From a bacterium (lineage in GTDB: Bacteria > Bacillota > Sulfobacillia > UBA995), in assembly GCA_031082145.1 (NCBI GenBank), contig JAVHLP010000001.1, forward strand, positions 508,885 through 572,884: DNA of 64,000 bases, read 5' to 3'. Positions 8,464 to 39,710 of this stretch are shown one piece after another. Below the pieces are notes generated by a model. The model did not search any database. It saw nothing but the letters and a program-made list of their open reading frames with translations, and was not told the DNA's origin. The stretch's first letter is position 1. Each line of letters starts with the position of its first letter. The position numbers and the translations under genes are program-made.

Positions 8464-8530
8464 CGCTGTTCCCCCCGGTCAGGATTCAACCCGCGCGGGT
8501 TCGACCCTTTCTCCGGGGAATACTTGAGCC

Positions 8531-10758: not shown

Positions 10759-10770
10759 GCCGATCCCTCC

Positions 10771-20150: not shown

Positions 20151-20846
20151 TCACTGACCCTGCCGGCCGTAGAGCCAGAGGGCGAAGGCGGCCAGGGCCG
20201 CGCCGGCCAGCCCGAGGGCCAGCCGATTGGCCACCAAATCGACTCCTTCCATCGGGTTGCCCCGCTGGAACAGGTATAGCGGCCCGGTGAGCACACCCGG
20301 CCGCAGCAGATCGGAAGCCCAGACGGCCATGGCGGCGGCCACCCCGGCGGGATAAGATCGCAGCAGGGTGGCGGCGGCCAGGACCAGGCCGGTCAGGAAG
20401 GCGGCGGGAGCCAGGGGGGCGACCGCCACCGGGGCCACGTCGAAGCCGGTGGAGGTCACCAGCCCGGCGAGGGCCGGCACAACCGGCACCGCCAGGACGA
20501 AGGCGGCCCAACCGGCGGCCAGGCGGCGGAGCGGAATCGCCGGACGCCAGGGGGGCAGGGACCGGACGACCTCCCCCGCCCGCGCCTCGTCGTCCAGGGT
20601 GGTGGCGTGACCGGCGGCGATGACGGCCAGCGGCGCCAGGGTGATCTCCGCCACCCGGACGGCCCGCGCCCCGGCCAGCAGCCGGGCCGCCCCGGGGCCA
20701 ATCCCCTCGGCCACCACCAGGAGTTCGGTCCGGCTCTCCCGCAGCACCACGGCCAGGATGAAGAAGGCCAGGAACAGGGTCCCGGGGAAGCCCCAGGAGA
20801 GCATGAGCCGGGCCTCGTGCCGGAGGAGGGCCGCCTCTTTCCTCAT
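20151..20846 (-). CDS. ABC-2-type permease-like membrane protein
   Basis: Start at MRKEAALL (ATG 20846, RBS GGAGAGGGGGG). About 6 TM helices. Confidence 0.5.
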   Translation of the reverse strand: MRKEAALLRHEARLMLSWGFPGTLFLAFFILAVVLRESRTELLVVAEGIGPGAARLLAGARAVRVAEITLAPLAVIAAGHATTLDDEARAGEVVRSLPPWRPAIPLRRLAAGWAAFVLAVPVVPALAGLVTSTGFDVAPVAVAPLAPAAFLTGLVLAAATLLRSYPAGVAAAMAVWASDLLRPGVLTGPLYLFQRGNPMEGVDLVANRLALGLAGAALAAFALWLYGRQGQ

Positions 20847-20847
20847 C

Positions 20848-23103: not shown

Positions 23104-23164
23104 GCTTTCCGTTTCCCCCTTCCCACCCGTCTGGACGAGGGAGGGGGCGCGGGGGTTCACCTGT

Positions 23165-24616
23165 TCATGAAATCCCCATGCCGGCCAGGACGCGGGCCGC
23201 TTGCTTGCACTCCTCGAGCGGCGCCGTCCGGGCGATCACGACCCGCTGGGCCTGCGGCGAGCCCGCGCCGTGCAGTGACTCCGGCAAGTAGCTGGCGGCG
23301 CCCCGGCCCAGGGTCAGGTGCTCGATAAGCCGCAAGACTCGCATCCGGTCCTCGACCGTCACGCCGGGCACGCCCTTCAGGTACTTGCGGAGGACCGGCC
23401 CCGTCAGCGGGTGCTCGAGATCCCGGGCCGAGGGCAGAGTGCAGACCAGGCCACCCGCCAAGTCCTGGGCCAGCCTGGCTATCTCGTAGGGGAGCCGGGT
23501 CACGTTGTGCTTGCAGACGTTGGCCAGGAGCGGGTCCACCATGTAGGAACCGGCGGGGGTCAGCCTCCCTTCCAGCGAACAGGCAAGTCCACAGGAGTAG
23601 ATGGTCTCGTTCAGGTGGACCATCTCCACCAGCTTGTCTCGTACGTGGGCCGCCCCGGCCACCCCGTTGTGCTCCGCCGCCAGCGCGGCGGCGCCGATGA
23701 GCACGTCGCCCACACCCGCCTTGCAACCGCCGTAGCTCTGGCGGTGGAAGGCTGCGAATCGCTCGACCAGCCGGCCGCTGTGGGCGACCTCGCCGGCCAT
23801 GAACACCCGGTCCAGGGGAACCCGGACATCGTCAAAGACGGTGAGCGCCTCGTGACCCCCGAAACAAGCGTTGCCCCGATCCAGGAGCGGGTCATATAGG
23901 CAGCGCTGGTCGCCCACCTGCCGGCCGACGACGTGGCTGATGCCGGGGGTGGTGGCGGGGATGGCGAAGGCGATGGCGTACTCCTCCTCGTCCTCGCGTA
24001 GGGCCAGAGTCGGCATGACGATGATCTCGTGCGAGCACAGGGCCCCGGTCTGATGCGCCTTGGCCCCCCTGACCACCAGGTGGTCGGCGCCCCTGCCGAT
24101 GACTCGAAGGTAGAGGTCTCGATCCTCCTGGGCCCCGGGGCGAGCGGATCGATCCCCCTTGACGTCCGTCATCGCCCCCTGGCAAACGAGGTCCTCCTCC
24201 TGCACGTGTTCGAGAAAGGCCTGGAACCGCCGGTGGTAACCGGTGCCCAGCTTCTCGTCCATCTCGTGGGTGGTGATGAAGAGGGCGTTCAGGGCGTCCC
24301 AGCCCACACAGCGCTGGAAACAGGCGCCGGTAGCCCGGCCCAGGATCCTCTGGAGCTTGACCTTGTCCACCAGGTTGGTGGCCGACCGGTGGATGTGGGT
24401 GAACCGGTTGACCGTTCGCCCCCCTGGGGTCACGGTGGTGGCCAGCCGACCGTGTTCCCGGTGACCGGTCAGATCGTAGGTGGCTGCCACCGACCGGGCC
24501 GAGAGGCCGATGAAGGGATGGTCAACCGCTTCCTCCACCCTCTCCCCCAGGAAGTAGGCGGTCAACTCCCGTCCTCGCAGGCTCGCCAGGTACTCGCTTC
24601 CCGTCTTGAGGGCCAT
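23165..24616 (-). CDS. abfD: 4-hydroxybutyryl-CoA dehydratase / vinylacetyl-CoA delta-isomerase family flavoprotein (HpaB-like fold)
   Basis: 483 aa. Collinear with Clostridium aminobutyricum AbfD as I remember it: NRFTHIHRS, FQRCVGWDA, DLVCQGAMTDVKGDRSARP, VRGAKAHQTG, YHRQSYGGCKAGVGDV, AGSPQAQRVVIAR. Confidence 0.8.
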   Translation of the reverse strand: MALKTGSEYLASLRGRELTAYFLGERVEEAVDHPFIGLSARSVAATYDLTGHREHGRLATTVTPGGRTVNRFTHIHRSATNLVDKVKLQRILGRATGACFQRCVGWDALNALFITTHEMDEKLGTGYHRRFQAFLEHVQEEDLVCQGAMTDVKGDRSARPGAQEDRDLYLRVIGRGADHLVVRGAKAHQTGALCSHEIIVMPTLALREDEEEYAIAFAIPATTPGISHVVGRQVGDQRCLYDPLLDRGNACFGGHEALTVFDDVRVPLDRVFMAGEVAHSGRLVERFAAFHRQSYGGCKAGVGDVLIGAAALAAEHNGVAGAAHVRDKLVEMVHLNETIYSCGLACSLEGRLTPAGSYMVDPLLANVCKHNVTRLPYEIARLAQDLAGGLVCTLPSARDLEHPLTGPVLRKYLKGVPGVTVEDRMRVLRLIEHLTLGRGAASYLPESLHGAGSPQAQRVVIARTAPLEECKQAARVLAGMGIS

Positions 24617-24893
24617 CCCGCTCCCCCTCCCCTGGCCCCTTCTTCCTCGCGGCGCTCGCCCTTCCTGCCGCGACGGTTGCGGCTCTCTGATGCGGTGAGC
24701 GCGGGCTCGCTACCCGCTTGAGCAGGCAAATGCCGTGCGAGGTCGGGACGCAGGAGGGATTCCTCACGCCCGTCGAAGAACTTGTCTCTTAAGGCCTGGT
24801 GCTCCCTGAGACGAGGGGAAGCTATTGCGAGCCCGCGTGGCACCGGATGCTACCTCCTGGTGCAACCGGCGAAGACCGTCCGCAGCATGAGTT

Positions 24894-24930
24894 AGCGCTG
24901 TGGGGGTGCGGCTGCGGCCGCACCCCCCGC
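24894..24930 (+). promoter_or_regulatory. Terminator-like hairpin in the 5' leader of the epimerase gene (possible attenuator)
   Basis: GGGGGTGCGGC / TGCG / GCCGCACCCCC, an 11-bp GC stem, followed by CGCTTTC. It lies about 30 nt upstream of ATG 24958 and its GGGAGGGAG RBS. Confidence 0.35.
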
Positions 24931-24957
24931 TTTCATCGCGGTGGGAGGGAGACGCAG

Positions 24958-26031
24958 ATGCGGATCCGATCCATCGATGTCCGGCCCAGGAACCTCAAGT
25001 TGAAGAACCCCTTGCCCATCTCCCTGGGCACCTTTCACTCTGCCGCCAATGTGCTGGTCACCGCGGAGGTGGAGGCTCCCGATGGCCGGAGGGTAACCGG
25101 ATACGGCGAAGGCGCTCCCATGGCCGTGATAACCGGCGAGACCCAGGAGGGAGTGCTGGCCTTCGCCCGCCTTGCCGCGCCCTCCTTGATCGGGCTCGAG
25201 GCAGCAGACCTGGAGGCGGTGCACGACCTACTGAACCGCGCGAGCCCCCGTCACGGTTCCGCCAAGGCCGCCATCGACCTCGCCCTGCACGACGCCGTGA
25301 GCCGCGCCCTGTCCATACCATTGGCCGCCCTGCTGGGCGGATCGACCCGGCCGTTCCTGACCGACATGACCATCGGTATGGCCGCCCCGGAGGTCATGGC
25401 TGCCAAGGCTGAACAGGAGGTCCTGGCCGGCTTCTCCATACTCAAACTCAAGCTGGGATCGGGCGAGGACGACGACGTAGCGCGGGTAGTCGCAGTGCGC
25501 GGCCGGGTGGGCGGCTCGGTGACGCTGCGGGTGGACGCCAACCAGGCCTGGACTCCGCTTCAGGCGCTGCACATTATCGAGCGCATCGCCCCTCTCCGTA
25601 TCGAGCTGGTCGAACAGCCGGTACCGGCGAGCGACATCCAGGGCCTGGTTGAGGTATCCCGGCGCTCGGCCGTGCCCATCATGGCCGACGAGAGCATCTT
25701 CACCCTTGAGGACGCCTTCCGGCTGGCGAGCGAGCAGGCATGCCACGTGTTCAACATCAAGTTGATGAAGTCCGGGGGGCTTCACCCGGCCCGGAAGATC
25801 AACGCCATAGCGGAGGCGGCCCGGATCCGGACTTTCGTGGGCTGCATGCTGGAGAGCAGCGTGTCCGTGGCCGCGGCGGCGCATTTCGTGGCGGCTCACC
25901 GCAACGTCATGGGGGCCGATCTTGACGCCCACCTTTATCTGGACCCTGACCCGGTCACAGGCGGGCCTCGGGTGGAGCGGGGTACGTTCCAGTTCCCGGC
26001 CGGCCCCGGCTCCGGCGCCGTACCACTCTGA
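24958..26031 (+). CDS. Dipeptide epimerase (L-Ala-D/L-Glu epimerase-like), enolase superfamily (MR/MLE)
   Basis: Enolase-superfamily layout with the KxK motif (ILKLKLG) and metal ligands (RVDANQAW; IMADES). Start ATG 24958 with GGGAGGGAG RBS. Confidence 0.8.
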   Translation: MRIRSIDVRPRNLKLKNPLPISLGTFHSAANVLVTAEVEAPDGRRVTGYGEGAPMAVITGETQEGVLAFARLAAPSLIGLEAADLEAVHDLLNRASPRHGSAKAAIDLALHDAVSRALSIPLAALLGGSTRPFLTDMTIGMAAPEVMAAKAEQEVLAGFSILKLKLGSGEDDDVARVVAVRGRVGGSVTLRVDANQAWTPLQALHIIERIAPLRIELVEQPVPASDIQGLVEVSRRSAVPIMADESIFTLEDAFRLASEQACHVFNIKLMKSGGLHPARKINAIAEAARIRTFVGCMLESSVSVAAAAHFVAAHRNVMGADLDAHLYLDPDPVTGGPRVERGTFQFPAGPGSGAVPL

Positions 26032-26110: not shown

Positions 26111-26596
26111 TCAGTTCAGGATGCCGGGCTTCCGCTCGCACAGGTTAGCCATGGCCCACACCAGGTCACCCCGGCTGATGATGCCCACCAGCTTGCCCTG
26201 GCGAAGCACGGGCACCCGGTTGATCTTGCGGCGCCCCACCAACCGGGCGACTTCTTCCAGGGAGTCGTCCTCGCTCACGGTGACGACCTTCTTTGTCATC
26301 ACCTCTTCGACCCGGGTGTCCCCCACCTCACACAGGCCCCGGGTGAACTGCGCGATCTCCTCCAGGGTGGTGTGGGGCGAGAGCCACCCGAACGGCTCCC
26401 GGAGCATCTTGACCTGAAGCCGCTGGCTCCTGGTGATCAGATCGTGCTCGGAGACGATCCCGACCAGTTCTCCCTGTGGATTGACCACCGGCATGCCGCT
26501 GATCTTATTCTCGTCAAGCAGCCTGGCCACCTCGGCCAGGGTGGCTCCCTGCCGGACGGTGATCACCGGGCTCTTCATCACATCCCTGGCCTTCAC
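26111..26596 (-). CDS. CBS-domain pair protein
   Basis: Two CBS repeats. GTG start 26596 (VKARDVMKSPVITV) with AGGAG RBS. Confidence 0.75.
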   Translation of the reverse strand: MKARDVMKSPVITVRQGATLAEVARLLDENKISGMPVVNPQGELVGIVSEHDLITRSQRLQVKMLREPFGWLSPHTTLEEIAQFTRGLCEVGDTRVEEVMTKKVVTVSEDDSLEEVARLVGRRKINRVPVLRQGKLVGIISRGDLVWAMANLCERKPGILN

Positions 26597-26601
26597 CCGC
26601 G

Positions 26602-27576
26602 TCACTCCTGTCGTGTGGCTGATAGGAAGGGATTCCCCCCCGGGCGACGGAGTTCCTTCCGGGGCCCGGAGCAACCGTACTTCGCCAGATAGGCCGGGAA
26701 GCTCCAGGTCTGGAGAAAGCGCCGCGCCGCTTCCCGCCCGGCGGCAAAGAGCTCGCGTTTGCGCTGTGAACTCAGGTCGAACTCCAGGGTGCCCACGCCC
26801 AGAGTGGGGATGGCGACCGTCCGTACCCAGTCCCGCTCTTCCAGGTGGCGCTGGTCGTGCGCCTGCAGCATGGTGCTGACAAGGGCCAACGTCAGGCTCA
26901 ACGGGCCCCGGATGGGTGTGGGCCGGCCGGATGACGGCTCGATCAACCGGAAGCCAAAAGCTGGATGGGTGGGCTTGCCGTTGGTGTCGACCAGCCAGAT
27001 GGGGAAGTTCGAGAGCAGTCCCCCGTCGACGATCACGCTCTGGCCGGAGAACCTGGCCAGTCGCACGGGCTCGTAGAAGAAGGGGACCGACGCGCTCATG
27101 CGGACCGCCCGGGCCACATCCAGGCGATCAGGATCCAGGCCGTATCTCGATGCATCCCGCGGCAGCACCAGAACCCGTCGCAGGCTAAGGTCGGAGGCAA
27201 TCACCTGCAAGGGATATTGTCCTCTTGGGTGCTCCCCGACCTCCAGGTCCCCGAAGCAGCGAATCCCGCGCGCAGCCAGCAAGTCCCGGAGCCAAGCCTC
27301 GAACCGGAGCCCCCGGTAAACCCCCCCGCGCATGGCCAAGGCAACGACGGGCGGCAGGCAGTCACGGTCCGCGAAGCGTCGGAAGTCCTCCTCGTGAAGC
27401 AACTGCCCCATCTCGGCCCCGGTGTAGCCAGCAGCCAGCAGGCTGGCCACCAGGGCCCCGGCCGAGGTACCCGCCACACGGAGCCACCGGTAGCCGGCTG
27501 CCTCCATCTCGGCCACCGCCCCGGCCAGGCCGATTCCCTTGACCCCGCCTCCCTCAAACACGGCATTGGCCCGCAA
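26602..27576 (-). CDS. Patatin-like phospholipase
   Basis: Oxyanion GGGVKG, nucleophile GTSAG, Asp of the dyad in DGG. Confidence 0.85.
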   Translation of the reverse strand: MRANAVFEGGGVKGIGLAGAVAEMEAAGYRWLRVAGTSAGALVASLLAAGYTGAEMGQLLHEEDFRRFADRDCLPPVVALAMRGGVYRGLRFEAWLRDLLAARGIRCFGDLEVGEHPRGQYPLQVIASDLSLRRVLVLPRDASRYGLDPDRLDVARAVRMSASVPFFYEPVRLARFSGQSVIVDGGLLSNFPIWLVDTNGKPTHPAFGFRLIEPSSGRPTPIRGPLSLTLALVSTMLQAHDQRHLEERDWVRTVAIPTLGVGTLEFDLSSQRKRELFAAGREAARRFLQTWSFPAYLAKYGCSGPRKELRRPGGNPFLSATRQE

Positions 27577-27627
27577 GACAGCGCCCCCCCCGGCAACCTA
27601 CGCGCCCGGGGGACGAGGAAGACCTTG

Positions 27628-28806
27628 TCAGCGAGTGGTGAGGACCCGGACGAGCTCAGCCAGGCCTTCCCGCCGGTAACGGCCGGAATACAGGCCGGCG
27701 GCAGGCCGGACAACCGCCACCGAGCCCTCGCCGCAGGAGGTGTTCTCGAACACCCACACCTCCTGTTCCTGTTCACCCACGGTAAAGGTGAGGACCGCGG
27801 CCGCCGTGCCTTCCTCCTCATAGAGGTTATTGAGAGTCCCCGCGAGGATCAGCCGGGCCAAACCCGCCACCCGACCGAGGCTCTCCGGGCCGCTCGCGCA
27901 GTCGAAGACGACAGGAGCCTCGCCGCCGATAAGCACCTTCACCCGCGTCGCCCGTAGGAGGCCACGGGGATCGTATTCCGGCCGGGGCGGTGGCTCGAGG
28001 ATCGCCTGGGCCAACTGCCAGAGGGGCGCGGCCCCGGCCAGCCGGGTGCCGGCCACCACCAGGTGTTCGGGGTCGCTCAAGCCGATGACGACCGGCCGGG
28101 CCCGGGAGGGCTTGTCGGTGTACACGTAGAGCGCGTAGTCGGGGAAGGCTGCGGGCCATCCACCGGGGGCGGGAGGTCCCACGCCTTTCATTGCCGCCTG
28201 TAGGGAACTCACGTAGTGGGGATCGAGGTCGCGGGTCACGGCGGGCAGGTCACCGGCCACCAGCACCACCCGGCCGGCTCCGGCTAGCAGTGAGGTCAGG
28301 CCGGCCGGGGAATCATCGACGGCAGGGCCGGGAACGGTGACCACTTGCAGGTCGACGCGGTAGATGGCGCTGTTCACGGCGAAAGCGGGATCCGCGATAA
28401 CCAGGCCGTATTCCCCCGGAGGCAAGTCGGCCGGCAAGATGAAGCGGGCAAGGCCGCCTTCCCTGAAGACGACCAGGGGCTTTGCCGACAGCTCACCAGT
28501 GGCCAATCCGAGTGCGAGCAGGGGCCAGTGCCGGCGGGGCACCTCAGAACCCAGCTCGACCTCGATCTCCTCCCCCGCGTGGACCAGCAGTTGAGGCCAG
28601 GCATCCTGGGTCCAGGAGAAGGTCTGTGGCTGGCCTCCGTCAACTCGCAGGGTCATCACACCATGTCGGGTCTCCTCACCATCAAGAGGACAGCAGATCT
28701 CAGGCGTGGCGGTTTCCGGCGCCTCGACGTCTCTCACCGGCGCTCGAGAGCAGCCGGCGATCAGGAAGACGGCGGCTACAGCGGCAATGCTCTTGGCGCC
28801 TCGCAT
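27628..28806 (-). CDS. Lipoprotein, function unknown
   Basis: Start at MRGAKSIAAVAAVFLIAGC with lipobox LIAGC. RBS GGAGAGAGG. Confidence 0.5.
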   Translation of the reverse strand: MRGAKSIAAVAAVFLIAGCSRAPVRDVEAPETATPEICCPLDGEETRHGVMTLRVDGGQPQTFSWTQDAWPQLLVHAGEEIEVELGSEVPRRHWPLLALGLATGELSAKPLVVFREGGLARFILPADLPPGEYGLVIADPAFAVNSAIYRVDLQVVTVPGPAVDDSPAGLTSLLAGAGRVVLVAGDLPAVTRDLDPHYVSSLQAAMKGVGPPAPGGWPAAFPDYALYVYTDKPSRARPVVIGLSDPEHLVVAGTRLAGAAPLWQLAQAILEPPPRPEYDPRGLLRATRVKVLIGGEAPVVFDCASGPESLGRVAGLARLILAGTLNNLYEEEGTAAAVLTFTVGEQEQEVWVFENTSCGEGSVAVVRPAAGLYSGRYRREGLAELVRVLTTR

Positions 28807-28922
28807 GTCCGACCTCTCTCCAAGGAGTCGGGCAGGGTTTCCCCGCCGCACGCCTCCGCACCTTCGGGTGCGCGAAGGAAACCCCCAGCTGTCAGGGATG
28901 GATGGGGAACTCGGTGCGGAGT

Positions 28923-31900
28923 TCAGCCGCCTTCTCCCATGCCCGCCCTGGCCTGAAAGACCAGGCTGCGGATGAACTCCTCGCGGTTGGGGTTGTTCTT
29001 GCCGTCATAGTAGACGGCGATCATGGGCAACCCGGTGTCTCTCCGCAAGGCAGTGAGCTGAGCCTCGACCACCGAGCCGGGCATGCAGTTGAAGGGAGCC
29101 ACGAAGATGATCCCCTGGATCTCCCCCTGACGCGCCAGGGCCAGGGGCCGGCCAATGGTCATGGGAGGCTCGCCACCGTAGTGGTTCGACACGTAGGCGG
29201 CGGACAGCTCCCGCAGTTCGGCCGGGGCGGGCTCGCGTCCCATCCCGCCGGCGACGGCGATGCGGTGCTCTTCGCGGTGGGCCAGGGCGTCCAACCCCCT
29301 GAAAGCCAGTTGGCGCATGAACCCGCCCGGCCCGCGGCTCTGCCGGTAGAAGGTTAAGGCCTCCTCGTAGTTCACGTAAGCGCTGAACTGGAAGAGCTCT
29401 GAAGCCGGGGAGAGCGAGACCTCACCCCCCGCCTGCTCCACCTTGCGGATGAGTTCCTGGTTGCAGCGATCATCCAGGCGCACGTAGAACTCACCGGACA
29501 CGGCGATGCGGGGGCGACGCTCGCCGGTGCTGGGGAGCCGGGCGAAGGCGGCCGCGGCCCGCCGCACCAGGTCCTCAAAGGGTTCGCGGTAGCTGCCGGA
29601 GACCACCCGGGAGAGGTTCATCCGGCTGCGGGCCAGCAGGCCCACCAGTTCGGCGGCGTACTGCTCGAAGCAAGCCTCGGCCGACCCCGGCTCCCGCTCA
29701 TAGGGTCGCGTCGCCAGCAGCAGCTTATGCAGGGCGTCCATGGCGAGGAGGCCCGCGTAGGTTCCGGCGGCGAAGGTCAAGCCGAAGCGGCCGACCGTCT
29801 CGCCCAAGGTCACCGAGCAGACGCGGCGGTCGCCGTGACCGGCCCGGTTCAGAACCAGGGCCTGGGTAGGCGCATACAGCCCGTAGCGGCAGGGACCCCA
29901 AGCCCCACCCTGGAAGAAGGTCACCCTCTCCTCACCGTTCCGCTCCAGGTACTCCAGGTAATCCTGTACGTTCTGGATGAGGGGCAGGCACTCGTCTCCG
30001 TTGACATGGCGGCGGGCCAGGGAGAGGTCCGGGTCGGCGCTGCGGGGCAGCAGGCCGGCGGGTACGCCGAAGCGCTCGAATAGGGCGGCAAAGACGCGGG
30101 CATGGGGGCTAGGCTCAGGCACCAGGATCTTGCCGTCCAGCTTCGCCAGTGACGCCGTCCGCGAGGAGAGGACGGTTGGCCCGGAGCCGGCCGGCCGGGC
30201 CCGGCAGGTGTTCTTGAACGCCTCCAGTCTGGTGATCATGCCGGCGGGGGCGGTGTGCTCGTCCATGGTTAGCCGGAGGCCAATGGTGACCATATCCAGG
30301 TAGTGCCGCAGCATGGCGTTGGGCCCGCACTTGAAAGGATCCTGCAAGACGGTGTGTAGGACCGGCAACCCGGCGGCGGCCCGCTGGTTCAGGTAGCGGG
30401 CCACGAAGGCAGCCGACAACATCCGCTGGGCCTGGGCCGGGTAGATGTGATGTACGCGTTCCCGGAAGCGGCTGAACTCCCGCTTGAAGTCCTCGCGCGA
30501 GCCCAGCCAGGGCGATGGCAGCCGCCCCTCGTACCAGCCCGCCACGTAAGCAAGCAGGTACTCCTGGGGCAGCGCGATGATGCCGGCCTGCCGGGCGTAC
30601 CGGAGCGATCGCTTGGAGGCCTCCTCGTCGTAGACGGTGTAGGGCCTGCCGACGAAGACGGCGGCGATGACGTCACCCCGGGCGTGGCGGGGGAGTTCCT
30701 CCTCCACCGCCCGCCTCCCCTCGCGCTCCATGGCCCGGTCGAATCCTGTCTGCTCACGGTACGCGGCAGCCACCGCCCGGGCGAGTCGCTCCTCGGTGTA
30801 GCGGCCGCCCAAGACCTTGCGGGCCAGAGGACGGAGTTGCTCCCTGACCGCTCGCCGGCCCCGCCGGTAATTGAGCTGCGCGTAGAGGACCCGGCCGGGA
30901 GGGAGGTCAACGGCGGCGGTGACCGTTCCCCACGCAGTCTGCAGCAGCGGGCAGGTGAAGCCCCGGGGCCAAGGCCGGGCCCAGGGCAAGGGTTCCAGGT
31001 CCACCACATCGGGGAGGAACACGTAGTCAAGCTCTCTCTCGGCCAGTTCCTGGTACTGCCCGACCAGGATCTCCATGGGGTAGCACATCTCACCGTCCAG
31101 CCGCCGCTTGCCCTCTTGTAAGGAGTGGTCGGCACCACCCTGGGCTACGACCACCCGCAGGCCCAATTCACGCAAGAAGGCGGCCCAAAAAGGATAGAGG
31201 TCGAAGAAGAGTCCCCCGCGAGCGAGCCCCACCGACGGCCCCTCGGGCAGCACCTCAATCTGCCGAAAGAGGTCGTTGCGGCGGGCCACGTAGTCGGGGA
31301 GGTGGGAGTACCGGGAGGCCCGCCTGGCTTCAATGCCGGAGTAGCGCCCACAGCGGTCGCCATAAAGCGTGGAGCCGCCGTCGGCAAAGGTCAGGACGTC
31401 CAGTAGGCAGTTGTGTCCCTGCTCACACCGGGCACTGCAATTGCGCTGGCCGCGGGTGAATGCGTGCAGGGTGTCCAGGCCACGGAACTCCTGGTCCGCC
31501 GGTTGTCCCCGTTCATGAAAGCGTTTGGCCATCAAGGCGCTGCCCAGGGCGCCGGTGAGTTCCGGCGAAGGCGGCACGGTGACGTCTCTGCCCGCCTCGG
31601 CCGCGAATGCGCTAGCCAGGGCATGGTTCTTGGCCGTGGCGCCGGTGAAGATGATCCTGCCCTCGAGGGGACGGTTCTCGGCCGTCTTGCGGAGGTAGTT
31701 GCGGGCGGCCGAGTAGGCCAAACTAGCCAGTTGGGCGGAGAGGGGAAGGCCCTGGGAAGCCGCCGCGGCCAGCGCCGATTGGGAGAGCAGGGTACAGGTG
31801 TCCCCAAGGTCGATGGCGTAATCGGCGGCGAATGCCTCGGCCGAGAACCCAGTGGCGATGTCCACTCCCAACAGGCTGGCCAGGTTCTCCAGGAAGGTAC

Positions 31901-33269
31901 CCGTTCCCGCCGCGCAGACCGGGTTCATGCGGTAGTCATGCAGGACTCCCTGCTTGAGCAGGAGGAACTTGGCGTCCTCGCCTCCAATCTCGATAATCGA
32001 GAGGTCCTCACCATCACCGCAGGCGTACTTGACGCCCTCCGCCTGGCACGTGATCTCGTCCACCGCGTACTCGGCCCCGATCGTCTTCTGGGAGAGGAAT
32101 CTCCCCGAGCCGGTGGTGCAGGCGATGATGCGGGAGCCCGCGACCAGGCTACCGAACTGCTCCCGGACCTGTCGCATGAGCTCCAGCACCTGTAGCGCGG
32201 GGCGGCCGGCGGTGGGCAGGTAGACACCCCCGATGACCGTGCCCTGGCGGTCCAACAGGGCGCACTTGGTGGACACCGACCCGCAGTCTACTCCCAGGTA
32301 GATGAGAGAGGTGTCCAATCCCCGGGGGCGCTCTGCCGCCGGCTGCATGTAGTGTACCTGCCCCGGGTTAAGCCGGCCGAGGGGGTTGAGACAAGCATAG
32401 GGGCGGGCCAGCATACCCGCGAAGTCAAGCTGCTCCAGGGTCGTCGCCGGGCCCTCCCCCGCCGCCCCCCGGGCCGGAAGGTACTCGTGGTCAGGGGGGA
32501 CGACTACCCGGCCGTCACCGCAGCACTCGCCGAGGTAGTGAAGAACTGCCGGGTTATTGGCGACTCCACCCACCACGGCCACCCGGCTCCGGGTCCGGGG
32601 CCGGCCCTGGGCGACGCTGTGGACAACCATCTCGGCCAGGGCTTGGGCCAGGCCGGCGGCTACCCCGCTCCGGGTGGCTCCCTCGTTGATGGCGTGGGTC
32701 ATGTCCGATTTCGCGAAGATGGCGCAGCGCCCGGAGATCCGCACCGGGGAGTCGGCGGCTAGAGCGAGGTCGGCCATCCCCCGGTCGTCAAGCCCCATGC
32801 GGGTGGCCTGCTGGTACCAGAATGACCCGCTTCCCGCGGCACACTGGCCATTCCGGTTGAAGAAACTCGGCGCCCCTCCGGGCCCCAGTTCCAGGTAGTA
32901 CATGTTCTCGTGCCCGAGCGACAGGACGGCCTCGGTCCGCACCCCGCCGGCGACCAGCCCCCTGGCCAAAGCCTCTATCTCCAGTACCGGCTCGGACCCG
33001 AGTTCACCGGCCAGGAGGTGGGCGTTGGCCCCCGTCAGGCCCAGACGGAAGCGGCGGGTGCGGTCGTCTCCGAGGAGACGGGTCAGGCACTCCCGGGCAC
33101 TCTGCACCGGCCGGCCGGCGGTGGGCACGATCGCCCGCCGAACCGTCTCCCCGTCCACCAGCACACCCTTGACGGCGAAAGTCCCCAAATCCAGCCCGAG
33201 GGCTGGCAGATCACTGGTAGTTGCTGCCAAGCGGATCACCTTCCCGGCCTTTCTTCTTCCACGGAGCAT
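28923..33269 (-). CDS. Fusion protein: two BadF/BadG/BcrA/BcrD (HgdC-like) activase ATPase domains plus an HgdB-like (2-hydroxyacyl-CoA dehydratase D-component) domain
   Basis: 1448 aa. Two ASKHA-type ATPase repeats (LGLDLGTFAVKG...; YLGVDCGSVSTKCALLD...IIACTTGSGR...). Long C-terminal region with conserved Cys spacing as in HgdB/DUF2229. Start ambiguous between 33240 and 33269. Confidence 0.75.
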   Translation of the reverse strand: MLRGRRKAGKVIRLAATTSDLPALGLDLGTFAVKGVLVDGETVRRAIVPTAGRPVQSARECLTRLLGDDRTRRFRLGLTGANAHLLAGELGSEPVLEIEALARGLVAGGVRTEAVLSLGHENMYYLELGPGGAPSFFNRNGQCAAGSGSFWYQQATRMGLDDRGMADLALAADSPVRISGRCAIFAKSDMTHAINEGATRSGVAAGLAQALAEMVVHSVAQGRPRTRSRVAVVGGVANNPAVLHYLGECCGDGRVVVPPDHEYLPARGAAGEGPATTLEQLDFAGMLARPYACLNPLGRLNPGQVHYMQPAAERPRGLDTSLIYLGVDCGSVSTKCALLDRQGTVIGGVYLPTAGRPALQVLELMRQVREQFGSLVAGSRIIACTTGSGRFLSQKTIGAEYAVDEITCQAEGVKYACGDGEDLSIIEIGGEDAKFLLLKQGVLHDYRMNPVCAAGTGTFLENLASLLGVDIATGFSAEAFAADYAIDLGDTCTLLSQSALAAAASQGLPLSAQLASLAYSAARNYLRKTAENRPLEGRIIFTGATAKNHALASAFAAEAGRDVTVPPSPELTGALGSALMAKRFHERGQPADQEFRGLDTLHAFTRGQRNCSARCEQGHNCLLDVLTFADGGSTLYGDRCGRYSGIEARRASRYSHLPDYVARRNDLFRQIEVLPEGPSVGLARGGLFFDLYPFWAAFLRELGLRVVVAQGGADHSLQEGKRRLDGEMCYPMEILVGQYQELAERELDYVFLPDVVDLEPLPWARPWPRGFTCPLLQTAWGTVTAAVDLPPGRVLYAQLNYRRGRRAVREQLRPLARKVLGGRYTEERLARAVAAAYREQTGFDRAMEREGRRAVEEELPRHARGDVIAAVFVGRPYTVYDEEASKRSLRYARQAGIIALPQEYLLAYVAGWYEGRLPSPWLGSREDFKREFSRFRERVHHIYPAQAQRMLSAAFVARYLNQRAAAGLPVLHTVLQDPFKCGPNAMLRHYLDMVTIGLRLTMDEHTAPAGMITRLEAFKNTCRARPAGSGPTVLSSRTASLAKLDGKILVPEPSPHARVFAALFERFGVPAGLLPRSADPDLSLARRHVNGDECLPLIQNVQDYLEYLERNGEERVTFFQGGAWGPCRYGLYAPTQALVLNRAGHGDRRVCSVTLGETVGRFGLTFAAGTYAGLLAMDALHKLLLATRPYEREPGSAEACFEQYAAELVGLLARSRMNLSRVVSGSYREPFEDLVRRAAAAFARLPSTGERRPRIAVSGEFYVRLDDRCNQELIRKVEQAGGEVSLSPASELFQFSAYVNYEEALTFYRQSRGPGGFMRQLAFRGLDALAHREEHRIAVAGGMGREPAPAELRELSAAYVSNHYGGEPPMTIGRPLALARQGEIQGIIFVAPFNCMPGSVVEAQLTALRRDTGLPMIAVYYDGKNNPNREEFIRSLVFQARAGMGEGG

Positions 33270-33311
33270 TTCCCTTTGCAGGGAAGATAACCCCCATTCG
33301 GCTGGTACCCG

Positions 33312-34880
33312 CTAGCCGAGGAGCATCCGGGCCACGGCGTGTCCGGACGCACAGCTGACCCCGATTCCCGGGTGGGTCGAAGCCCCCGTCATGTACAGGC
33401 GCCGGAAGGGCGTCCGGAAACGGGACCAGCCCGGCAAGGGACGGAAGAGGTAGAACTGATCAAGCAGGTGGCTGCCGGCACCGGCATCGCCTCGGACGAA
33501 GTTGGGGTTCAGCCGCTCCAGATCGGCCGGGGAGAGAACGTTGCGCGCCAGGATGCACTGCCGGAAACCCGGAGCGTAAGTCTCCAGCAGTGCTACCCGA
33601 TCGGCGAAAGGTTCCTTGATGCGCTCCCAGGGGCCCGGAGGTATGACCCCGGCGGCGTCGCCGGCGACTGCGAAGGGGACGGAGCGGGCCTCCACCCACA
33701 GGACGTGCCGGCCAGGAGGAGCGCGGCCGGGATCCACCACTGTAGGCTGGCTCACCAGGAGTAGGGGCTCCTCTGGCAAGTAGCCGCGCAGGGCCTGGTT
33801 GCAGGCAAGGGAGATGTCGTCCACGCTGCGGGTCAGATGCAGGTTGCCGGCTTCTCCGGCCTCGGCGGCAATCCAGGCCGGGCGGCAGCTCAGGGCAAAA
33901 TCCAGCTTCACCACTGACGGGCCATAGCGATAGGCCCGGACGAGCCGGCCAAATCCGGGCGGGAGTAGGTCCTCGCCGATCAGGTCCAGGAAAAGGTGAG
34001 TCGGGGGAACGCCCGCTACGACGGCCCGCCTCGCCACCACCCGGGCGCCGCCGGAGAGCTCCACGCCACAAGCGGTGGTGCCACGGAGGAGAATGCGAGT
34101 CACCCGTGTGCCGGTGCGGACTTCGCCGCCGAGCGACTGCAGTAACGCGGCCAGTGCCTGGGTAAGTCGCCCGCTACCTCCCTCGGGTATGGCTAGGCCG
34201 GCCCGGGGATCCTGGGCCGCGGCCAGGGCGATCCAGGCCAGAACGGCACCGCCCGCCGTTTCCGGCGTGTGGTCGGCGTGGAAAGCCCAGGGGGCGAACC
34301 AGGCTTTGGCCTTCTCTTGGGTGAAGAAGCGGTCGGCCATGTCCCGGACGGACATGGTCATCAGGTGAGCGAAGTCGACGTTCCCGCGAGACCCCAGCCT
34401 GAGACGCGCGTTCGCCAGCGCCTGCAGTGATCCGGCTGCCGGTACGGGGGAGTTGAGCAGGGCGCTGATGCCCGCCCGCAGGTTGGAGTAGAGGCGATAG
34501 AGACGGCGCCAGCCGTCGGCGTCGGCCGCCGACTGCCGGGTGAGGCTGGCCAGAGTGTGGCTCAAATCCCGGTGCAGGGCGACGAGATCGCCGTCGGGGA
34601 ACAGTGTGGCCGCGGGGAGATCAAACCGCAGGTAGCGCAGCCCGTGGCGCCGGAGTTGGGGGGCGAACTGGCGGTAGAAGGAGGTCAGAAAGATGAGGAG
34701 GTGGCGGTTTGCGAAGGAGTCATGGTGAAACCCCGGCAAGGTCCACTCCGCCGTCCGAACGCCTCCCCCCACCTCCCTGGCTTGCTCAAAGACGACCACC
34801 TTCCACCCCGCCCGGGCCAACACTACGGCCGCCGCGAGGGCGTTGTGCCCCGAGCCGATGAGGATGGCGTCGTAAGTCAC
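33312..34880 (-). CDS. Phytoene-desaturase-family FAD/NAD(P)-dependent oxidoreductase (COG1233-like)
   Basis: N-terminal YDAILIGSGHNALAAAVVLARAG dinucleotide fold, then FExxxxxGG. GTG start at 34880 overlaps the upstream paralog's stop (GTGA). Confidence 0.75.
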   Translation of the reverse strand: MTYDAILIGSGHNALAAAVVLARAGWKVVVFEQAREVGGGVRTAEWTLPGFHHDSFANRHLLIFLTSFYRQFAPQLRRHGLRYLRFDLPAATLFPDGDLVALHRDLSHTLASLTRQSAADADGWRRLYRLYSNLRAGISALLNSPVPAAGSLQALANARLRLGSRGNVDFAHLMTMSVRDMADRFFTQEKAKAWFAPWAFHADHTPETAGGAVLAWIALAAAQDPRAGLAIPEGGSGRLTQALAALLQSLGGEVRTGTRVTRILLRGTTACGVELSGGARVVARRAVVAGVPPTHLFLDLIGEDLLPPGFGRLVRAYRYGPSVVKLDFALSCRPAWIAAEAGEAGNLHLTRSVDDISLACNQALRGYLPEEPLLLVSQPTVVDPGRAPPGRHVLWVEARSVPFAVAGDAAGVIPPGPWERIKEPFADRVALLETYAPGFRQCILARNVLSPADLERLNPNFVRGDAGAGSHLLDQFYLFRPLPGWSRFRTPFRRLYMTGASTHPGIGVSCASGHAVARMLLG

Positions 34881-36460
34881 CGCAGCAGGAGGCGTGCCGT
34901 GATGTAGCCGGGGTTGGTGCTTATGCCCAGGCCGGGATGGGTGGCCGCCCCGGTCAAGTAGAGCCTGCGGATGGGGGTCTGGCCCCTCGACCACCCAGGG
35001 AAGGGGCGGAACAGGTAAGACTGGTCGAGCAGCATGCTACCTGCGGCCACGTCTCCCCGTACCAGGTTGGGGTTGAGTCGCTCCAGGTCATCGGGAGAGA
35101 GTACGCACCGGCCAAGCACACTTGCGCGGAAGCCGGGGGCATAGCCCTCCAGCAAGCCGGTGACCCGGTCGGCGAAGCGGTCCTTGATACGGTCCCAGGG
35201 GCCCGGCTGGATCTCCCCCCCGCTGTCGCCCTTGACCAGGTGGGGAACAGACCGGACGACAACCCAGAGGGTGTGCTTGCCGGGAGGAGCCCGGGTGGGG
35301 TCCAGCACCGTAGGCTGGCTCACGATGAGCAGGGGCTCATCCGGAAGGTACCCCCTGAGGGCCTGGTTGTGAGCATGCGACATGCTGTCCACCCCGGAAG
35401 CGAGGTGGAGATTGCCCGCCCGCCCGACTTCGTCGCCGGCGATCCAGGCGGGAGCCCGGTCCAGGGCATAGTCGATCTTGACCACGGACAGGCCATAGCG
35501 ATACCTGCGGACCAGTTCGAGGAAGGCCCCCGGGAGGTGCCCCTCCCCCACCAGGTCGAGGAAGAGCTTGGTGGGAGCGAGTCCGGCCACTACCGCCCGG
35601 TTTGCTTTGACCCGGGTACCGCCGGCCAGTTCCACCCCTTGGGCGGTCCTGCCCCGCAGCAGTATCCGGACCACCTCTTGGCCGAGATGGATTTCCCCTC
35701 CCAATGACCGGAGTAGAGAGGCGAGGGCTGCGGTGAGCGCCCCGCTGCCCCCTTCGGGGATGGCCAGGCCGGCGCCAGGGTCCTGGGAGGTGCCGAGGAC
35801 GATCCACGAGAGCGCTCCTCCGCCGGCGGTCTCGGGGCTATGATCGGGGTGCAGGGCCCACGGTACGAACCAGGCCCTGGCTTTCGCAGTGGAGAAATGC
35901 CGGCCGGCAAAGTCACCCGCAGACATGATGAGCATCTGAGCGAATTCAACGGTCCCTCGGGGGCCTAGTCCCAGCCGGGGCCGGATCAGCCCGGCCAAGG
36001 CCCGGACGGAGGGGAGAGGCGAACTGAAGAGGGCCACGAAAGTCTCTTGATACCGCTTGTAGAGGTCGTAAAGGAAGCGCCAGCCGTCCGCGTCTGCCGC
36101 GGACTGTTTCCCCAGGCTGCCCAGGGTCTGCTCCAAATCCCGGTGCATGCAGACGGCGTCACCGTCGGGGAAAACACTGGCCAGGGGGACGGGGAACCGC
36201 AGGTACTTCAGCCCGTACTTCTCCAGTTCGGCCCGCATCTGCCGGTAGAAGGGGGATATAAGGATGAACACATGCGTGTTGGCGAGAGCGTCATGCCGGT
36301 ATCCGGGCAGGGTCCACTCGGCAGTGCGGATCGCGCCCCCGACGTCCTGGCCCCGCTCGAAGATGCCGACCCTCCAGCCGGCCTTCGTCAGGAGAATGCC
36401 GGCGGTCAGGGCATTGTGCCCGGCCCCGATCAGGACGGCGTCGTAGACGACCGCGCCCAT
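34877..36460 (-). CDS. Phytoene-desaturase-family FAD/NAD(P)-dependent oxidoreductase (COG1233-like), tandem paralog
   Basis: YDAVLIGAGHNALTAGILLTKAG. About 55-60% identical to the downstream paralog over the full length. Confidence 0.75.
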   Translation of the reverse strand: MGAVVYDAVLIGAGHNALTAGILLTKAGWRVGIFERGQDVGGAIRTAEWTLPGYRHDALANTHVFILISPFYRQMRAELEKYGLKYLRFPVPLASVFPDGDAVCMHRDLEQTLGSLGKQSAADADGWRFLYDLYKRYQETFVALFSSPLPSVRALAGLIRPRLGLGPRGTVEFAQMLIMSAGDFAGRHFSTAKARAWFVPWALHPDHSPETAGGGALSWIVLGTSQDPGAGLAIPEGGSGALTAALASLLRSLGGEIHLGQEVVRILLRGRTAQGVELAGGTRVKANRAVVAGLAPTKLFLDLVGEGHLPGAFLELVRRYRYGLSVVKIDYALDRAPAWIAGDEVGRAGNLHLASGVDSMSHAHNQALRGYLPDEPLLIVSQPTVLDPTRAPPGKHTLWVVVRSVPHLVKGDSGGEIQPGPWDRIKDRFADRVTGLLEGYAPGFRASVLGRCVLSPDDLERLNPNLVRGDVAAGSMLLDQSYLFRPFPGWSRGQTPIRRLYLTGAATHPGLGISTNPGYITARLLLR

Positions 36461-36510: not shown

Positions 36511-36558
36511 ACAAAAAAGCGAGGAGGCTGGCCACTCCCGTCCGGCCCGGCCCCCTCG
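36511..36558 (-). terminator. Rho-independent terminator after the lipoprotein gene
   Basis: Minus-strand read: GCGAGGGGGCCGGGCC...GGCCAGCCTCCTCGC, then UUUUUUGUU. Confidence 0.65.
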
Positions 36559-37381: not shown

Positions 37382-38005
37382 CTAGTGGTCACTCTCACTG
37401 GCGGCCCCGGGTCGGCTACCGGCCCGGAGCCATGCTCCGGCGAAGGCAGCCGATCCCAAGAGGGTCAATGGCTTTCCCGCCGCCAGCCCGGGGCACCGTA
37501 CCCCGGGCTGGCCGGCAACCAGAGGGCCACCCTCGGCCAGGACCCGGCTGGAGAGCCACACAAACCCCTCCACGGTATCCCGGGGACTGCTGATCGGCTC
37601 GCCGCTCGCGACGCGAACCCGGTAGACCGCACAGACGTATCCATCGAGGTCGATCGGCGAACTCGGGGTCTGCTGCCGCCATATGAAGGCCGGCCGGGGT
37701 GTCTCTCGCTCCGGAAGCTCGACGGCTAGAGGTCCTGCATCCAGGAACAGGTGGGTCAAGGGAGAGTCCTGAACCGCCGCCGCCAGGCCGGCTTCCTCCC
37801 TGATCTCCCGCCTCAAGGCTTCCACCAAGGTCTCCCCCGGCTCGGGCCGCCCGCCCAGCCCAAATACCAGGCCGTCCCCGGTTCGGGCGAAGAGCCAGTG
37901 TCCCGCCCGGCCGATCATGGCCCCGGTACTGATCCTGGACCCCAGGAGTTTCAGTGCTTCCTGGAGCCCCTGCCGCCGCACGAGTTCAACCCATCCCTTG
38001 GTCAT
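37382..38005 (-). CDS. NUDIX hydrolase
   Basis: Nudix box GGRPEPGETLVEALRREIREEAGL. Confidence 0.75.
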   Translation of the reverse strand: MTKGWVELVRRQGLQEALKLLGSRISTGAMIGRAGHWLFARTGDGLVFGLGGRPEPGETLVEALRREIREEAGLAAAVQDSPLTHLFLDAGPLAVELPERETPRPAFIWRQQTPSSPIDLDGYVCAVYRVRVASGEPISSPRDTVEGFVWLSSRVLAEGGPLVAGQPGVRCPGLAAGKPLTLLGSAAFAGAWLRAGSRPGAASESDH

Positions 38006-38703
38006 GGCCGGGCGGCGAAAGTGGCCAGCACCGTCTCGGCGCCCCGCACCCGGTCACCCACCCGGCAGTGCACGGTGACCGCGGGATCGAAGATCACCAG
38101 GTCAACCTGTGACCCCCGGTCGATGAAGGAGATCTTCTGCCCTGCCGCGACCCGGTCACCCTCCCGCACGAAGCAGGTTATCCGGTTCACAACGCGATCG
38201 CAAATCTCCACCGCCGCCACCATGCGCTCCCCGGCCTGGAACACGATGGTGTTCCGCTCGTTGACCAGACGGTAACGGGCCGTCAGCAGGTCGGCCGGCC
38301 GGCGCAGGAAGGTCAGGCGGAAGAAACTGAGCAAGCCAACCATGGACAGGTTGATCCCGGTTGGGGTGTAGACCACCCGGGTCACCTCGCCGGCCATGGG
38401 GGCGTAGTTAAAGTGCACGTCCAGGGGGGACATGTAGATGCCTACCAGCCAACCTTCTTTCTGGGGCAGGTCCAGGCGGAGGATCTCCTCCACCTGGATC
38501 CGGGTCCCCTGCTTTTCGGCCACCACCTCACCACCGGCGAAGGGACGGACATAGAGGACGATGCCGTCGGCAGGGGAGACCACGGTGTCAGGCCGGTCCG
38601 GGGCACGACGGGGGGGATCGCGATAGAACCAGACCCGTTGCAGGAAGACATAGGCGCCCGCCAGGGCCGCCAGCGTAACTACCAGGTATGCGAGCAGTTC
38701 CAT
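38002..38703 (-). CDS. Phosphatidylserine-decarboxylase-related protein (Psd / archaetidylserine decarboxylase-like)
   Basis: N-terminal TM helix, PADG, and a GS-like processing motif region as in small Psd-like proenzymes. Start at MELLAYL. Confidence 0.6.
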   Translation of the reverse strand: MELLAYLVVTLAALAGAYVFLQRVWFYRDPPRRAPDRPDTVVSPADGIVLYVRPFAGGEVVAEKQGTRIQVEEILRLDLPQKEGWLVGIYMSPLDVHFNYAPMAGEVTRVVYTPTGINLSMVGLLSFFRLTFLRRPADLLTARYRLVNERNTIVFQAGERMVAAVEICDRVVNRITCFVREGDRVAAGQKISFIDRGSQVDLVIFDPAVTVHCRVGDRVRGAETVLATFAARP

Positions 38704-38711
38704 TCCTCCTC

Positions 38712-39710
38712 TCACCACTCCCGCCAGGCCTTCTGGGCCTTGTAGGGGAGCCGCGGCAGGTAATACCCCACCAGACCGCTCAACACCTGGTGGGGGTGCC
38801 CGCGCCCGCTGGGCAGGTGGCCGGGCCGGAGCGGCCCACCTCGGTAGGCGCTGTCCAGAGCGCTGTAGGCCCCCACTATCCCGTACTCCCGGACCAGGTC
38901 CACCATGACCACCGCCGGTGGGACGGCAAAGAGCCTCTCGTCAACCGGGCAGAAAGCGGACAACTCTCGGTAACGGGCCGCCAGTTCGGGCGTGTAGCCG
39001 GCTGTGGCCGCCTGGTGCCGCAACCGGGCGTAGTCTTCGAGGTCGATTTCGATGTCGGGGCCGTGCAGGACCACCCTGAGCGCGCAGTCGGCCAGAACCC
39101 GCAGGCGATCAAGGTCCCAGGTGGGATCGAACACCCGGGCCTCCAGGGTACCCAGCCGGCGGGCGAGGATCAGGTCCTGGAAGCGGTAGTACGGGTCCGG
39201 CCGCAAGGGACCGATGGCATAGGAACAAGCCATGCGGTAGGACACGCCCCACTGCCTGCCTCCCCGGAAAGGGGCGTTGGCGGTCAAGAGGGCTAGCAGC
39301 GGCAGGTACCGGGCCAGCCGCCGGTAGGCCCGGAGCGGCTCGGCGAGACCCCCCAGGTGAAGATGCAGGCCACAGGTATTGGTGGGGGTATCCCCTTCCG
39401 CCAGATGGCCCAGGGGGACGACGAGAGCCGCCCGGCCGCAAGCGCTGGCCAGGGCTTCTCTTCGCCCGGCGAGGTCCGCCACCAACGCGTCGGGCGAGGA
39501 ACAGGGAAGGGTCGAGATCTCCACCCCGCTCATCATGCCCTGCCTCAGGTCGGCCCCACGGGAGAAGTTGGAGTCGCTGTGCGCGTAGTAGAAACGGGGC
39601 TCCCGCCAGAGAAGGCGGGTCAGGAAGTACAGGGAACGCAACGAAGGCCGGGAGGGTTCGGTCAGGAAGACCTCCTCTTCCAGTCCTAGTAAGAGACCTT
39701 GCACCCTCAC
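38712..39710 (-). CDS. GCS2-family carboxylate-amine ligase (YbdK-like)
   Basis: 332 aa with a glutamate-cysteine ligase family 2 layout (HLHLG region). Confidence 0.65.
   Translation of the reverse strand: MRVQGLLLGLEEEVFLTEPSRPSLRSLYFLTRLLWREPRFYYAHSDSNFSRGADLRQGMMSGVEISTLPCSSPDALVADLAGRREALASACGRAALVVPLGHLAEGDTPTNTCGLHLHLGGLAEPLRAYRRLARYLPLLALLTANAPFRGGRQWGVSYRMACSYAIGPLRPDPYYRFQDLILARRLGTLEARVFDPTWDLDRLRVLADCALRVVLHGPDIEIDLEDYARLRHQAATAGYTPELAARYRELSAFCPVDERLFAVPPAVVMVDLVREYGIVGAYSALDSAYRGGPLRPGHLPSGRGHPHQVLSGLVGYYLPRLPYKAQKAWREW

Follow-up and report, generated by a model that had tools for sequence, protein, structure and literature searches.

Plasmalogen synthase (PlsA/PlsR) and Ger (glycerol ester reductase) of Thermotoga maritima and Desulfatibacillum alkenivorans are the closest described counterparts of the protein reported here, a putative iron-sulphur fusion enzyme encoded on the minus strand of a 64,000-nucleotide stretch of bacterial DNA (Sulfobacillia, lineage UBA995; assembly GCA_031082145.1, contig JAVHLP010000001.1, positions 508,885 to 572,884), which was analysed as a whole and is called the window below. 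Ger and PlsA/PlsR share an architecture of two PF01869 regions, one PF09989 region and variable C-terminal parts (Sahonero-Canavesi et al. 2022, PMC13159169). Members of the family convert the sn-1 acyl ester of glycerolipids to a vinyl or alkyl ether (PMC13159169, PMC8788747, PMC12838417, PMC9702350), and the chemistry proposed for this conversion consists of two one-electron reductions of the sn-1 ester followed by protonation and dehydration (PMC8788747). The Ger proteins of T. maritima and D. alkenivorans, each expressed alone in anaerobic Escherichia coli, gave rise to 1-alkyl glycerol ethers (PMC13159169), single-gene forms of plsA, 4248-4311 bp in size, yielded plasmalogens in E. coli (PMC12838417), and active pls orthologues have been reported for Listeria (PMC9702350).

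The original prediction for this locus had joined the fusion gene and five flanking genes, among them two flavoprotein genes (FAD1 and FAD2), into one radical-enzyme system, and had assumed that large activase-dehydratase fusions have no assigned substrate. Given the published function of PlsA/PlsR and Ger on glycerolipids, that premise is out of date, and the lipid redox-dehydration role guessed at the time agrees with the activity of this family. We consider the fusion to be a divergent member of the PlsA/Ger family, probably with a lipid substrate, and put the probability of this reading at about 60%. The fusion is the only component assigned to a described enzyme; a new radical-enzyme system with flavoprotein partners was not upheld by the comparisons given below, and therefore no new mechanism is proposed here.

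Pfam searches place PF01869 (BcrAD_BadFG) in two stretches of the fusion (E 2.6e-51) and, after these activase modules, PF09989 (DUF2229) at residues 680-903, with 112.7 bits against a cut-off of 29.4. The gene and its modules are as follows.

28923-33269, minus strand: candidate PlsA/Ger-family fusion ORF (open reading frame), 1448 aa, with two PF01869 stretches, PF09989 and the Listeria alignment described below
32400-33212, minus strand: activase module 1, about residues 20-290, with full-length alignments to MbdQ (9GAI) and HadI (4EHT)
31515-32312, minus strand: activase module 2, about residues 320-585, with alignments to HadI (4EHT) and DCCP-R (7YYL_E)
31350-31439, minus strand: four-cysteine linker motif (C611, C615, C621, C640), invariant in 26 superfamily sequences
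30180-31262, minus strand: catalytic module 1 ('Red1', DUF2229/PF09989), about residues 670-1030, placed by Pfam, an AlphaFold2 model and fold matches
28926-30137, minus strand: catalytic module 2 ('Red2', equivalent to PlsR), about residues 1045-1448, placed by the AlphaFold2 model, fold matches and the C-terminal part of the Listeria alignment

Both activase modules align over their full lengths with HadI, HgdC, DCCP-R and MbdQ/P, and their cluster cysteines, C143 (RNGQCAAGSGSF) and C182 (ISGRCAIFAKSD) in module 1 and C452 (MNPVCAAGTGTF) and C492 (LGDTCTLLSQS) in module 2, line up with two motifs of HadI, MbdQ and DCCP-R, CAAGTG and C-T-x-F-A-E-S. Cysteine triads were found in both catalytic modules, C729/C773/C981 in Red1 and C1094/C1127/C1395 in Red2. 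Together with the four activase and four linker cysteines they constitute 14 positions that are invariant in an alignment of 26 sequences, comprising the clade to which the fusion belongs (the window clade), distant representatives and the type found in Listeria, Collinsella and Paenibacillus. The cysteines on which the original prediction depended are present in both activase modules and, as invariant triads, in both catalytic modules. The triads would be compatible with a single [4Fe-4S] site in each catalytic module, held by three cysteines as in the 2-hydroxyacyl-CoA dehydratase and benzoyl-CoA reductase (HAD/BCR) enzymes, and the linker, which aligns with SRCNLCSNTC...GNRC of Listeria, probably binds an additional Fe-S or metal site.

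Residues 590-1448 were modelled by AlphaFold2 as two modules (predicted local distance difference test, pLDDT, 86; predicted template modelling score, pTM, 0.85), and this C-terminal half folds like BzdN, HadC and the double-cubane cluster protein (DCCP) at 10-14% identity, in agreement with Foldseek. The Red2 region has no Pfam match. The activase alignments and the two-module catalytic model therefore describe a single chain that holds a complete 'activator plus alpha/beta catalytic pair' and, as judged from sequence and predicted fold, the fusion is an ATP-driven low-potential Fe-S enzyme of the 'archerase' type within the BCR/HAD superfamily. An ATP-driven radical-type enzyme had been foreseen in the original prediction, of which the two BcrAD_BadFG activase modules and the DUF2229 region stand, while its single HgdB-like domain gives way to two BCR/HAD-type catalytic modules.

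The fusion shares homologous ATPase modules, the same cluster cysteines and, presumably, the ATP-coupled injection of low-potential electrons with HadI/HadBC, HgdC/HgdAB, BzdNOPQ and MbdONPQ. It differs from these systems in being a single chain with an extra four-cysteine linker and a catalytic part of low identity to theirs, and the substrate in the PlsA/Ger family is a membrane lipid ester rather than a CoA thioester. DCCP and DCCP-R (6ENO, 7YYL) supply some of the best matches, in fold and in sequence, to the catalytic and ATPase parts; they are separate subunits, whereas the fusion carries two three-cysteine triads as in HAD/BCR enzymes. A 2-hydroxyacyl-CoA dehydratase or benzoyl-CoA reductase proper was considered and rejected: the benzoyl-CoA reductase equivalog models of NCBIfam score far below their cut-offs on the fusion, PF06050 (HGD-D) is absent from it even at E-values up to 10, and only the fold is held in common, at the low identity given above.

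Homology to the lipid enzymes was traced through Listeria. The Listeria monocytogenes protein WP_014600632.1 (1475 aa) and the fusion are 25% identical over 1347 BLASTP columns (E 2e-87) in a collinear alignment that runs from residue 25 to 1309, and this protein is the sole homologue in the 2.9-Mb Listeria record. It and the Collinsella aerofaciens homologue, both detected by tblastn of a plasmid collection in chromosome-sized records, have the same Pfam architecture as the fusion. Some of the plasmid records concerned (NZ_CP030101.1, NZ_LR134399.1, NZ_OY725717.1) are chromosome-sized or fragments (Listeria 2.9 Mb, Collinsella 0.9 Mb), a caveat for plasmid statistics drawn from them. The Collinsella gene is preceded by a TetR-like gene, as described for pls of Enterococcus faecalis, and a search seeded with the Listeria protein returned mostly Paenibacillus, with no Enterococcus among the matches listed.

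Two start sites can be considered for the fusion. The likelier one, TTG at 33230, is preceded by a Shine-Dalgarno sequence (GGAAGGTGA) and gives 1435 aa, in agreement with the 1435-aa NCBI model carried by a 100%-identical protein from a metagenome-assembled genome (MAG). With either start, the length of 1435-1448 aa agrees with the size of single-gene plsA (PMC12838417). Module order and length are the same as in PlsA/PlsR (Clostridium perfringens CPE1194-1195, and the single-gene PlsA of E. faecalis EF1327, Listeria, Lactococcus and Bifidobacterium), and like PlsA the fusion gene stands alone in most genomes; it differs in having no TetR regulator upstream.

With Ger ('modified PlsA'; T. maritima Tmari_0479, D. 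alkenivorans SHJ90043) the fusion shares a combination of two activase domains with one detectable PF09989 region ('BBD'), the published pattern for alkyl-ether-forming enzymes of the Ger type (PMC13159169). This rule is weak because the Listeria protein likewise shows two activase stretches. The window clade is somewhat closer to a group with proteins of Candidatus Brocadiia and Aerophobetes (29-32% identity) than to the PlsA type, and its hosts are anaerobic Bacillota of the kind found in published Ger screens. Those screens list Symbiobacteriaceae, Syntrophomonadaceae and Dethiobacteraceae among the Bacillota with Ger homologues, which may or may not be the window clade. PF06050 fragments, in which Ger differs from the fusion, do occur in a few members of the window clade. 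The authors of the Ger screens regard Ger and PlsA as not separable by sequence at present, and we therefore hold a lipid-ester substrate to be well founded, short of a demonstration; whether the product would be a vinyl or an alkyl ether does not appear to be readable from the sequence.

A scan of 185,579 species genomes yielded 80 loci with fusion orthologues at 51-71% identity, all in MAGs of Bacillota that include one of Symbiobacterium thermophilum together with Dethiobacteria and Syntrophomonadaceae. The S. thermophilum MAG has an orthologue at 69% identity and a MAG of Dethiobacter alkaliphilus one at 58%. The commonest gene directly upstream on the same strand is lgt (prolipoprotein diacylglyceryl transferase), in 28 of these loci (e.g., L005 and L049), and a gene for phosphatidylserine decarboxylase (PSD) holds that position in L001 and L002. 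Thus lgt or PSD adjoins the fusion in 30 of the 80 loci, and the window also carries a PSD gene, farther upstream. Other orthologues have RNase H, thiolase with ornithine carbamoyltransferase, or thiE directly upstream.

Several points weigh against a lipid enzyme of the PlsA/Ger family. An exhaustive HMMER search of 1.84 billion representatives gave 848 clusters at E <= 1e-30; in it the window clade made up a single 50%-identity cluster whose next full-length relatives are 28-35% identical. The clade forms a separate deep branch in a neighbour-joining tree built without the validated enzymes. Its identity to the PlsA type of Listeria, Collinsella and Paenibacillus is 23-25%, and PF09989 scores 113 bits on the fusion versus 286 on the Listeria and 292 on the Collinsella protein, a match about 2.5-fold weaker. 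Homology to the validated proteins of C. perfringens (Q8XL48/Q8XL47), E. faecalis (Q835P9) and T. maritima (AGL49404) is indirect, via Listeria. Lipid-related neighbours are found at a minority of loci and are lacking in P0002 and P0003, two close relatives described below. Finally, the gap between FAD2 and the fusion gene is short and contains no detected terminator; therefore co-transcription is possible, and with it a local functional link.

Alternatively, the fusion could represent a paralogous clade that retains the PlsA/Ger architecture while acting on a substrate other than a glycerolipid. It might then reduce or dehydrate a different ester, a thioester of CoA or some small molecule, in the manner of the double-cubane cluster proteins. 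Of the rival explanations this one survives best, and we judge it possible, though unlikely. It draws on the separation of the clade as a deep branch, whose identity to all other family members is 23-34%, on the weak PF09989 score and on motifs specific to the clade (FF[NS]RNGQC and GSG[SA]FWYQ). Each of two Syntrophomonadaceae MAGs holds two copies of the window-clade gene on different contigs (L055/L077 in CAZDKY01 and L079/L080 in SLRT01), and most neighbours (RNase H, thiolase, ornithine carbamoyltransferase, nitroreductase) have no relation to lipids. Against it, every invariant cysteine and the full domain order are retained, and PlsA and Ger are themselves very divergent and still have a substrate class in common. 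Moreover, the lgt and PSD neighbours include the PSD gene of the window, and the families concerned already appear in the published Ger screens.

If the fusion is indeed a PlsA/Ger-type lipid enzyme, the electron path that we infer by analogy with the family would start from a low-potential donor of the ferredoxin or flavodoxin type, which would reduce a [4Fe-4S] cluster held between the fused ATPase modules by C143/C182 and C452/C492. Hydrolysis of ATP would then push the electron, possibly via the four-cysteine linker, into the [4Fe-4S] clusters of the catalytic modules, where one-electron steps of the ketyl type would reduce the carbonyl of the sn-1 acyl ester in a membrane glycerophospholipid, with dehydration to follow. 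A vinyl ether (plasmalogen) would be formed or, after more reduction, a saturated alkyl ether. A partner of the kind represented by Mss (membrane-spanning lipid synthase) was not indicated, no radical-SAM family being present in Pfam scans of the window ORFs.

The window, which belongs to a MAG of a Symbiobacterium-related member of the Bacillota, has a G+C content of about 68%, and the six minus-strand ORFs named in the original prediction are all present. In addition to the fusion gene, the features of the locus are these.

38002-38718, minus strand: phosphatidylserine decarboxylase (PSD), assigned by Pfam, NCBIfam and the gene order of relatives
about 36522-36558, minus strand: hairpin and T-run resembling an intrinsic terminator, which terminates the upstream lipoprotein gene and sets FAD1 apart
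34877-36460, minus strand: FAD1, a flavoprotein of the Amino_oxidase/CrtI superfamily, 527 aa (Pfam, NCBIfam)
33312-34880, minus strand: FAD2, a paralogue of FAD1 with a GTG start, 522 aa (Pfam, NCBIfam, pairwise comparison)
27628-28806 (alternative start 28851), minus strand: downstream lipoprotein, 392 aa, with lipobox FLIAGC
26602-27576, minus strand: patatin-like phospholipase, 324 aa (Pfam)
26111-26596 (alternative start 26674), minus strand: CBS-pair protein, 161 aa (Pfam)

The tight junctions that had been noted were all found: the stop codon of FAD1 and the start codon of FAD2 overlap in GTGA, FAD2 and the fusion gene are separated by 42 nt (81 nt if the later start is used), the fusion and lipoprotein genes by 116 nt, and the next two junctions measure 51 and 5 nt. 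The terminator placed upstream of FAD1 was recovered as well, and the lipoprotein, patatin and CBS assignments were borne out. A promoter had been proposed just before 36460, where GATAAT is indeed present, and the promoter scan 5' of FAD1 found no full sigma-70 -35/-10 consensus pair. No terminator was detected in the FAD2-fusion gap, and the intergenic RNA between the fusion and lipoprotein genes, folded in a search for a terminator, gave no sign of special structure (z = -0.33). The 392-aa lipoprotein has no family match in Pfam. For the patatin and CBS genes a role in defence was considered because of weak NCBIfam matches, far below the cut-offs, to CBASS lipase and DS11 models, and was set aside.

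FAD1 and FAD2 are 63% identical and, as had been proposed, are paralogous flavoproteins with CrtI-like features, having the Amino_oxidase fold and the N-terminal FAD (flavin adenine dinucleotide)-binding motif of the CrtI/CrtO superfamily. They pass only the broad Pfam models Amino_oxidase, NAD_binding_8 and DAO. Their scores differ from those of known members in falling far below the specific cut-offs, with 109.4 and 112.7 bits versus 238.1 for crtI_fam (TIGR02734) and 266 and 251 bits versus 1000 for the CrtO ketolase model (NF045689), which nevertheless aligns over the full length and is the best NCBIfam match; the best solved relative is CrtI (4DGK). A carotenoid or isoprenoid role was rejected on these scores, and such genes were not found in the family scans of window ORFs. 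The homologues nearest to the pair (54-63% identity) occur singly, in five unrelated gene contexts, and a further tier at about 40% identity takes in the aerobes Egibacter, Marinococcus and Tabrizicola.

Neighbourhoods of flavoprotein relatives were collected for 88 loci, totalling 0.99 Mb. Tandem flavoprotein pairs occur in 23 of them (within L092-L170; e.g., L124 at 8286-11563 and L153 at 10001-13167). Among the distant relatives, recurrent neighbours are genes for a GcvT-like aminomethyltransferase, a Rieske oxygenase, a class-III aminotransferase and an APC permease, a gene content that suggests amine catabolism. Tandem pairs and neighbours together hint at an amine-catabolic flavoenzyme of two subunits or two steps.

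The co-conservation expected of a multi-gene system with flavoprotein partners failed from both sides. FAD1/FAD2 homologues were detected by tblastn at none of the 80 fusion loci, nor at any of the 53 with at least 3.2 kb of upstream sequence, and none of the 88 flavoprotein loci carries PlsA-like, PSD or patatin genes. The patatin gene occurs near the fusion in one of the 80 loci (L002), and the downstream lipoprotein has a weak homologue in one, the S. thermophilum MAG, where it lies 3' of the fusion. For the closest relatives, two of which (L171/P0002 and L172/P0003) were looked up separately, the gene orders are as follows.

L001 (71% identity) and L002 (69%): GCS2-like, PSD, fusion, (lipoprotein), ..., CBS
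L171 (P0002, 71%) and L172 (P0003, 70%): TldD, PmbA, RseC, nitroreductase, fusion, enolase-superfamily gene on the opposite strand, CBS

The CBS gene is the most persistent downstream neighbour in these relatives, with the opposite-strand enolase-superfamily gene lying between it and the fusion in L171 and L172. The window retains this backbone (TldD/PmbA at 46920-49681, the enolase-superfamily gene at 24799-26031 and CBS at 26111) and has GCS2-like and PSD genes in common with L001 and L002. As nitroreductase or PSD lies directly upstream of the fusion in the closest relatives, the window must carry an insertion. Its gains upstream are ArsP, SBF, MFS, amidohydrolase, NUDIX, lipoprotein, FAD1 and FAD2 genes, the last four of which now separate PSD from the fusion, and downstream they are the lipoprotein and patatin genes. 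FAD1 and FAD2 thus form a tandem duplicate inserted in this lineage at a variable site upstream of the fusion, and their substrate is most likely unrelated to that of the fusion. The locus as a whole is, by these comparisons of gene order, a mosaic and not a dedicated six-gene system, and the patatin, lipoprotein and CBS genes are neighbours of the enzyme and not components of it.

The stretch between TldD/PmbA(-nitroreductase) and the fusion (26111-52000 in the window) is a hot spot of variable content among close relatives. L171 and L172 have no additional genes there, L001 and L002 carry the GCS2-like and PSD genes at the least, and the window holds about ten genes. In the latter three the GCS2-like gene, a homologue of GCS2/YbdK-like carboxylate-amine ligases, overlaps the PSD start (window 38002-39710, L001 8217-9879, L002 1831-3494). 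The pair is kept in L001 and L002 at 68-77% identity and may modify lipid head groups.

The flavoproteins could still be tied to the fusion in this lineage only, as a newly acquired and co-transcribed CrtI/RetSat-like pair that acts on its product, converting vinyl to alkyl ether or the reverse, or desaturating the alkyl chain. Among members of the CrtI superfamily are C=C saturases and isomerases, and a CrtI/RetSat-like saturase acting on a vinyl ether is chemically plausible; moreover, the pair directly precedes the fusion on its strand, and no terminator lies in between. If true, FAD1 and FAD2 would provide a long-sought vinyl-ether saturase and, with the fusion, a two-step route to bacterial alkyl ether lipids. 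Flavoprotein and fusion genes show no association in the 168 loci examined from both sides, and we therefore rate this link as very improbable. Aerobes without PlsA, among them those named above, commonly have flavoproteins of this family, and its distant relatives keep company with genes suggestive of amine catabolism. Ger, for its part, forms alkyl ethers without any such partner (PMC13159169).

The idea that all six genes are one operon for an undescribed pathway, with flavoproteins, fusion and patatin acting on one lipid, isoprenoid or CoA-ester substrate, can be given hardly any credence, since the shared strand, the tight or overlapping junctions and a terminator found before FAD1 and not between FAD2 and the fusion are set against the absence of co-conservation at both sets of loci, a patatin gene near the fusion at a single locus, different genes at these positions in the closest relatives and the activity of family members on their own in E. 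coli (PMC13159169, PMC12838417).

Farther from the fusion gene, two further regions were recorded. At 23165-24616 on the minus strand a 483-aa protein of the HpaB family matches both Pfam HpaB halves and, in an anaerobe, may be a radical enzyme of the 4-hydroxybutyryl-CoA dehydratase type rather than an oxygenase. At 20151-23160, also on the minus strand, ORFs of 770 aa and 327 aa with gene-like codon G+C and no Pfam family adjoin the ATPase gene of an ABC transporter and probably encode the membrane proteins of a transporter not yet characterised.

[quoted passage not shown] The PlsA/Ger family was identified only in 2021-2022, and its vinyl-ether-forming and alkyl-ether-forming enzymes are not yet separable by sequence. 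To this family the window adds a well-defined, deep-branching clade from Symbiobacteriia, Dethiobacteria and Syntrophomonadaceae, which would be a useful extra data point for working out how its specificity is determined.

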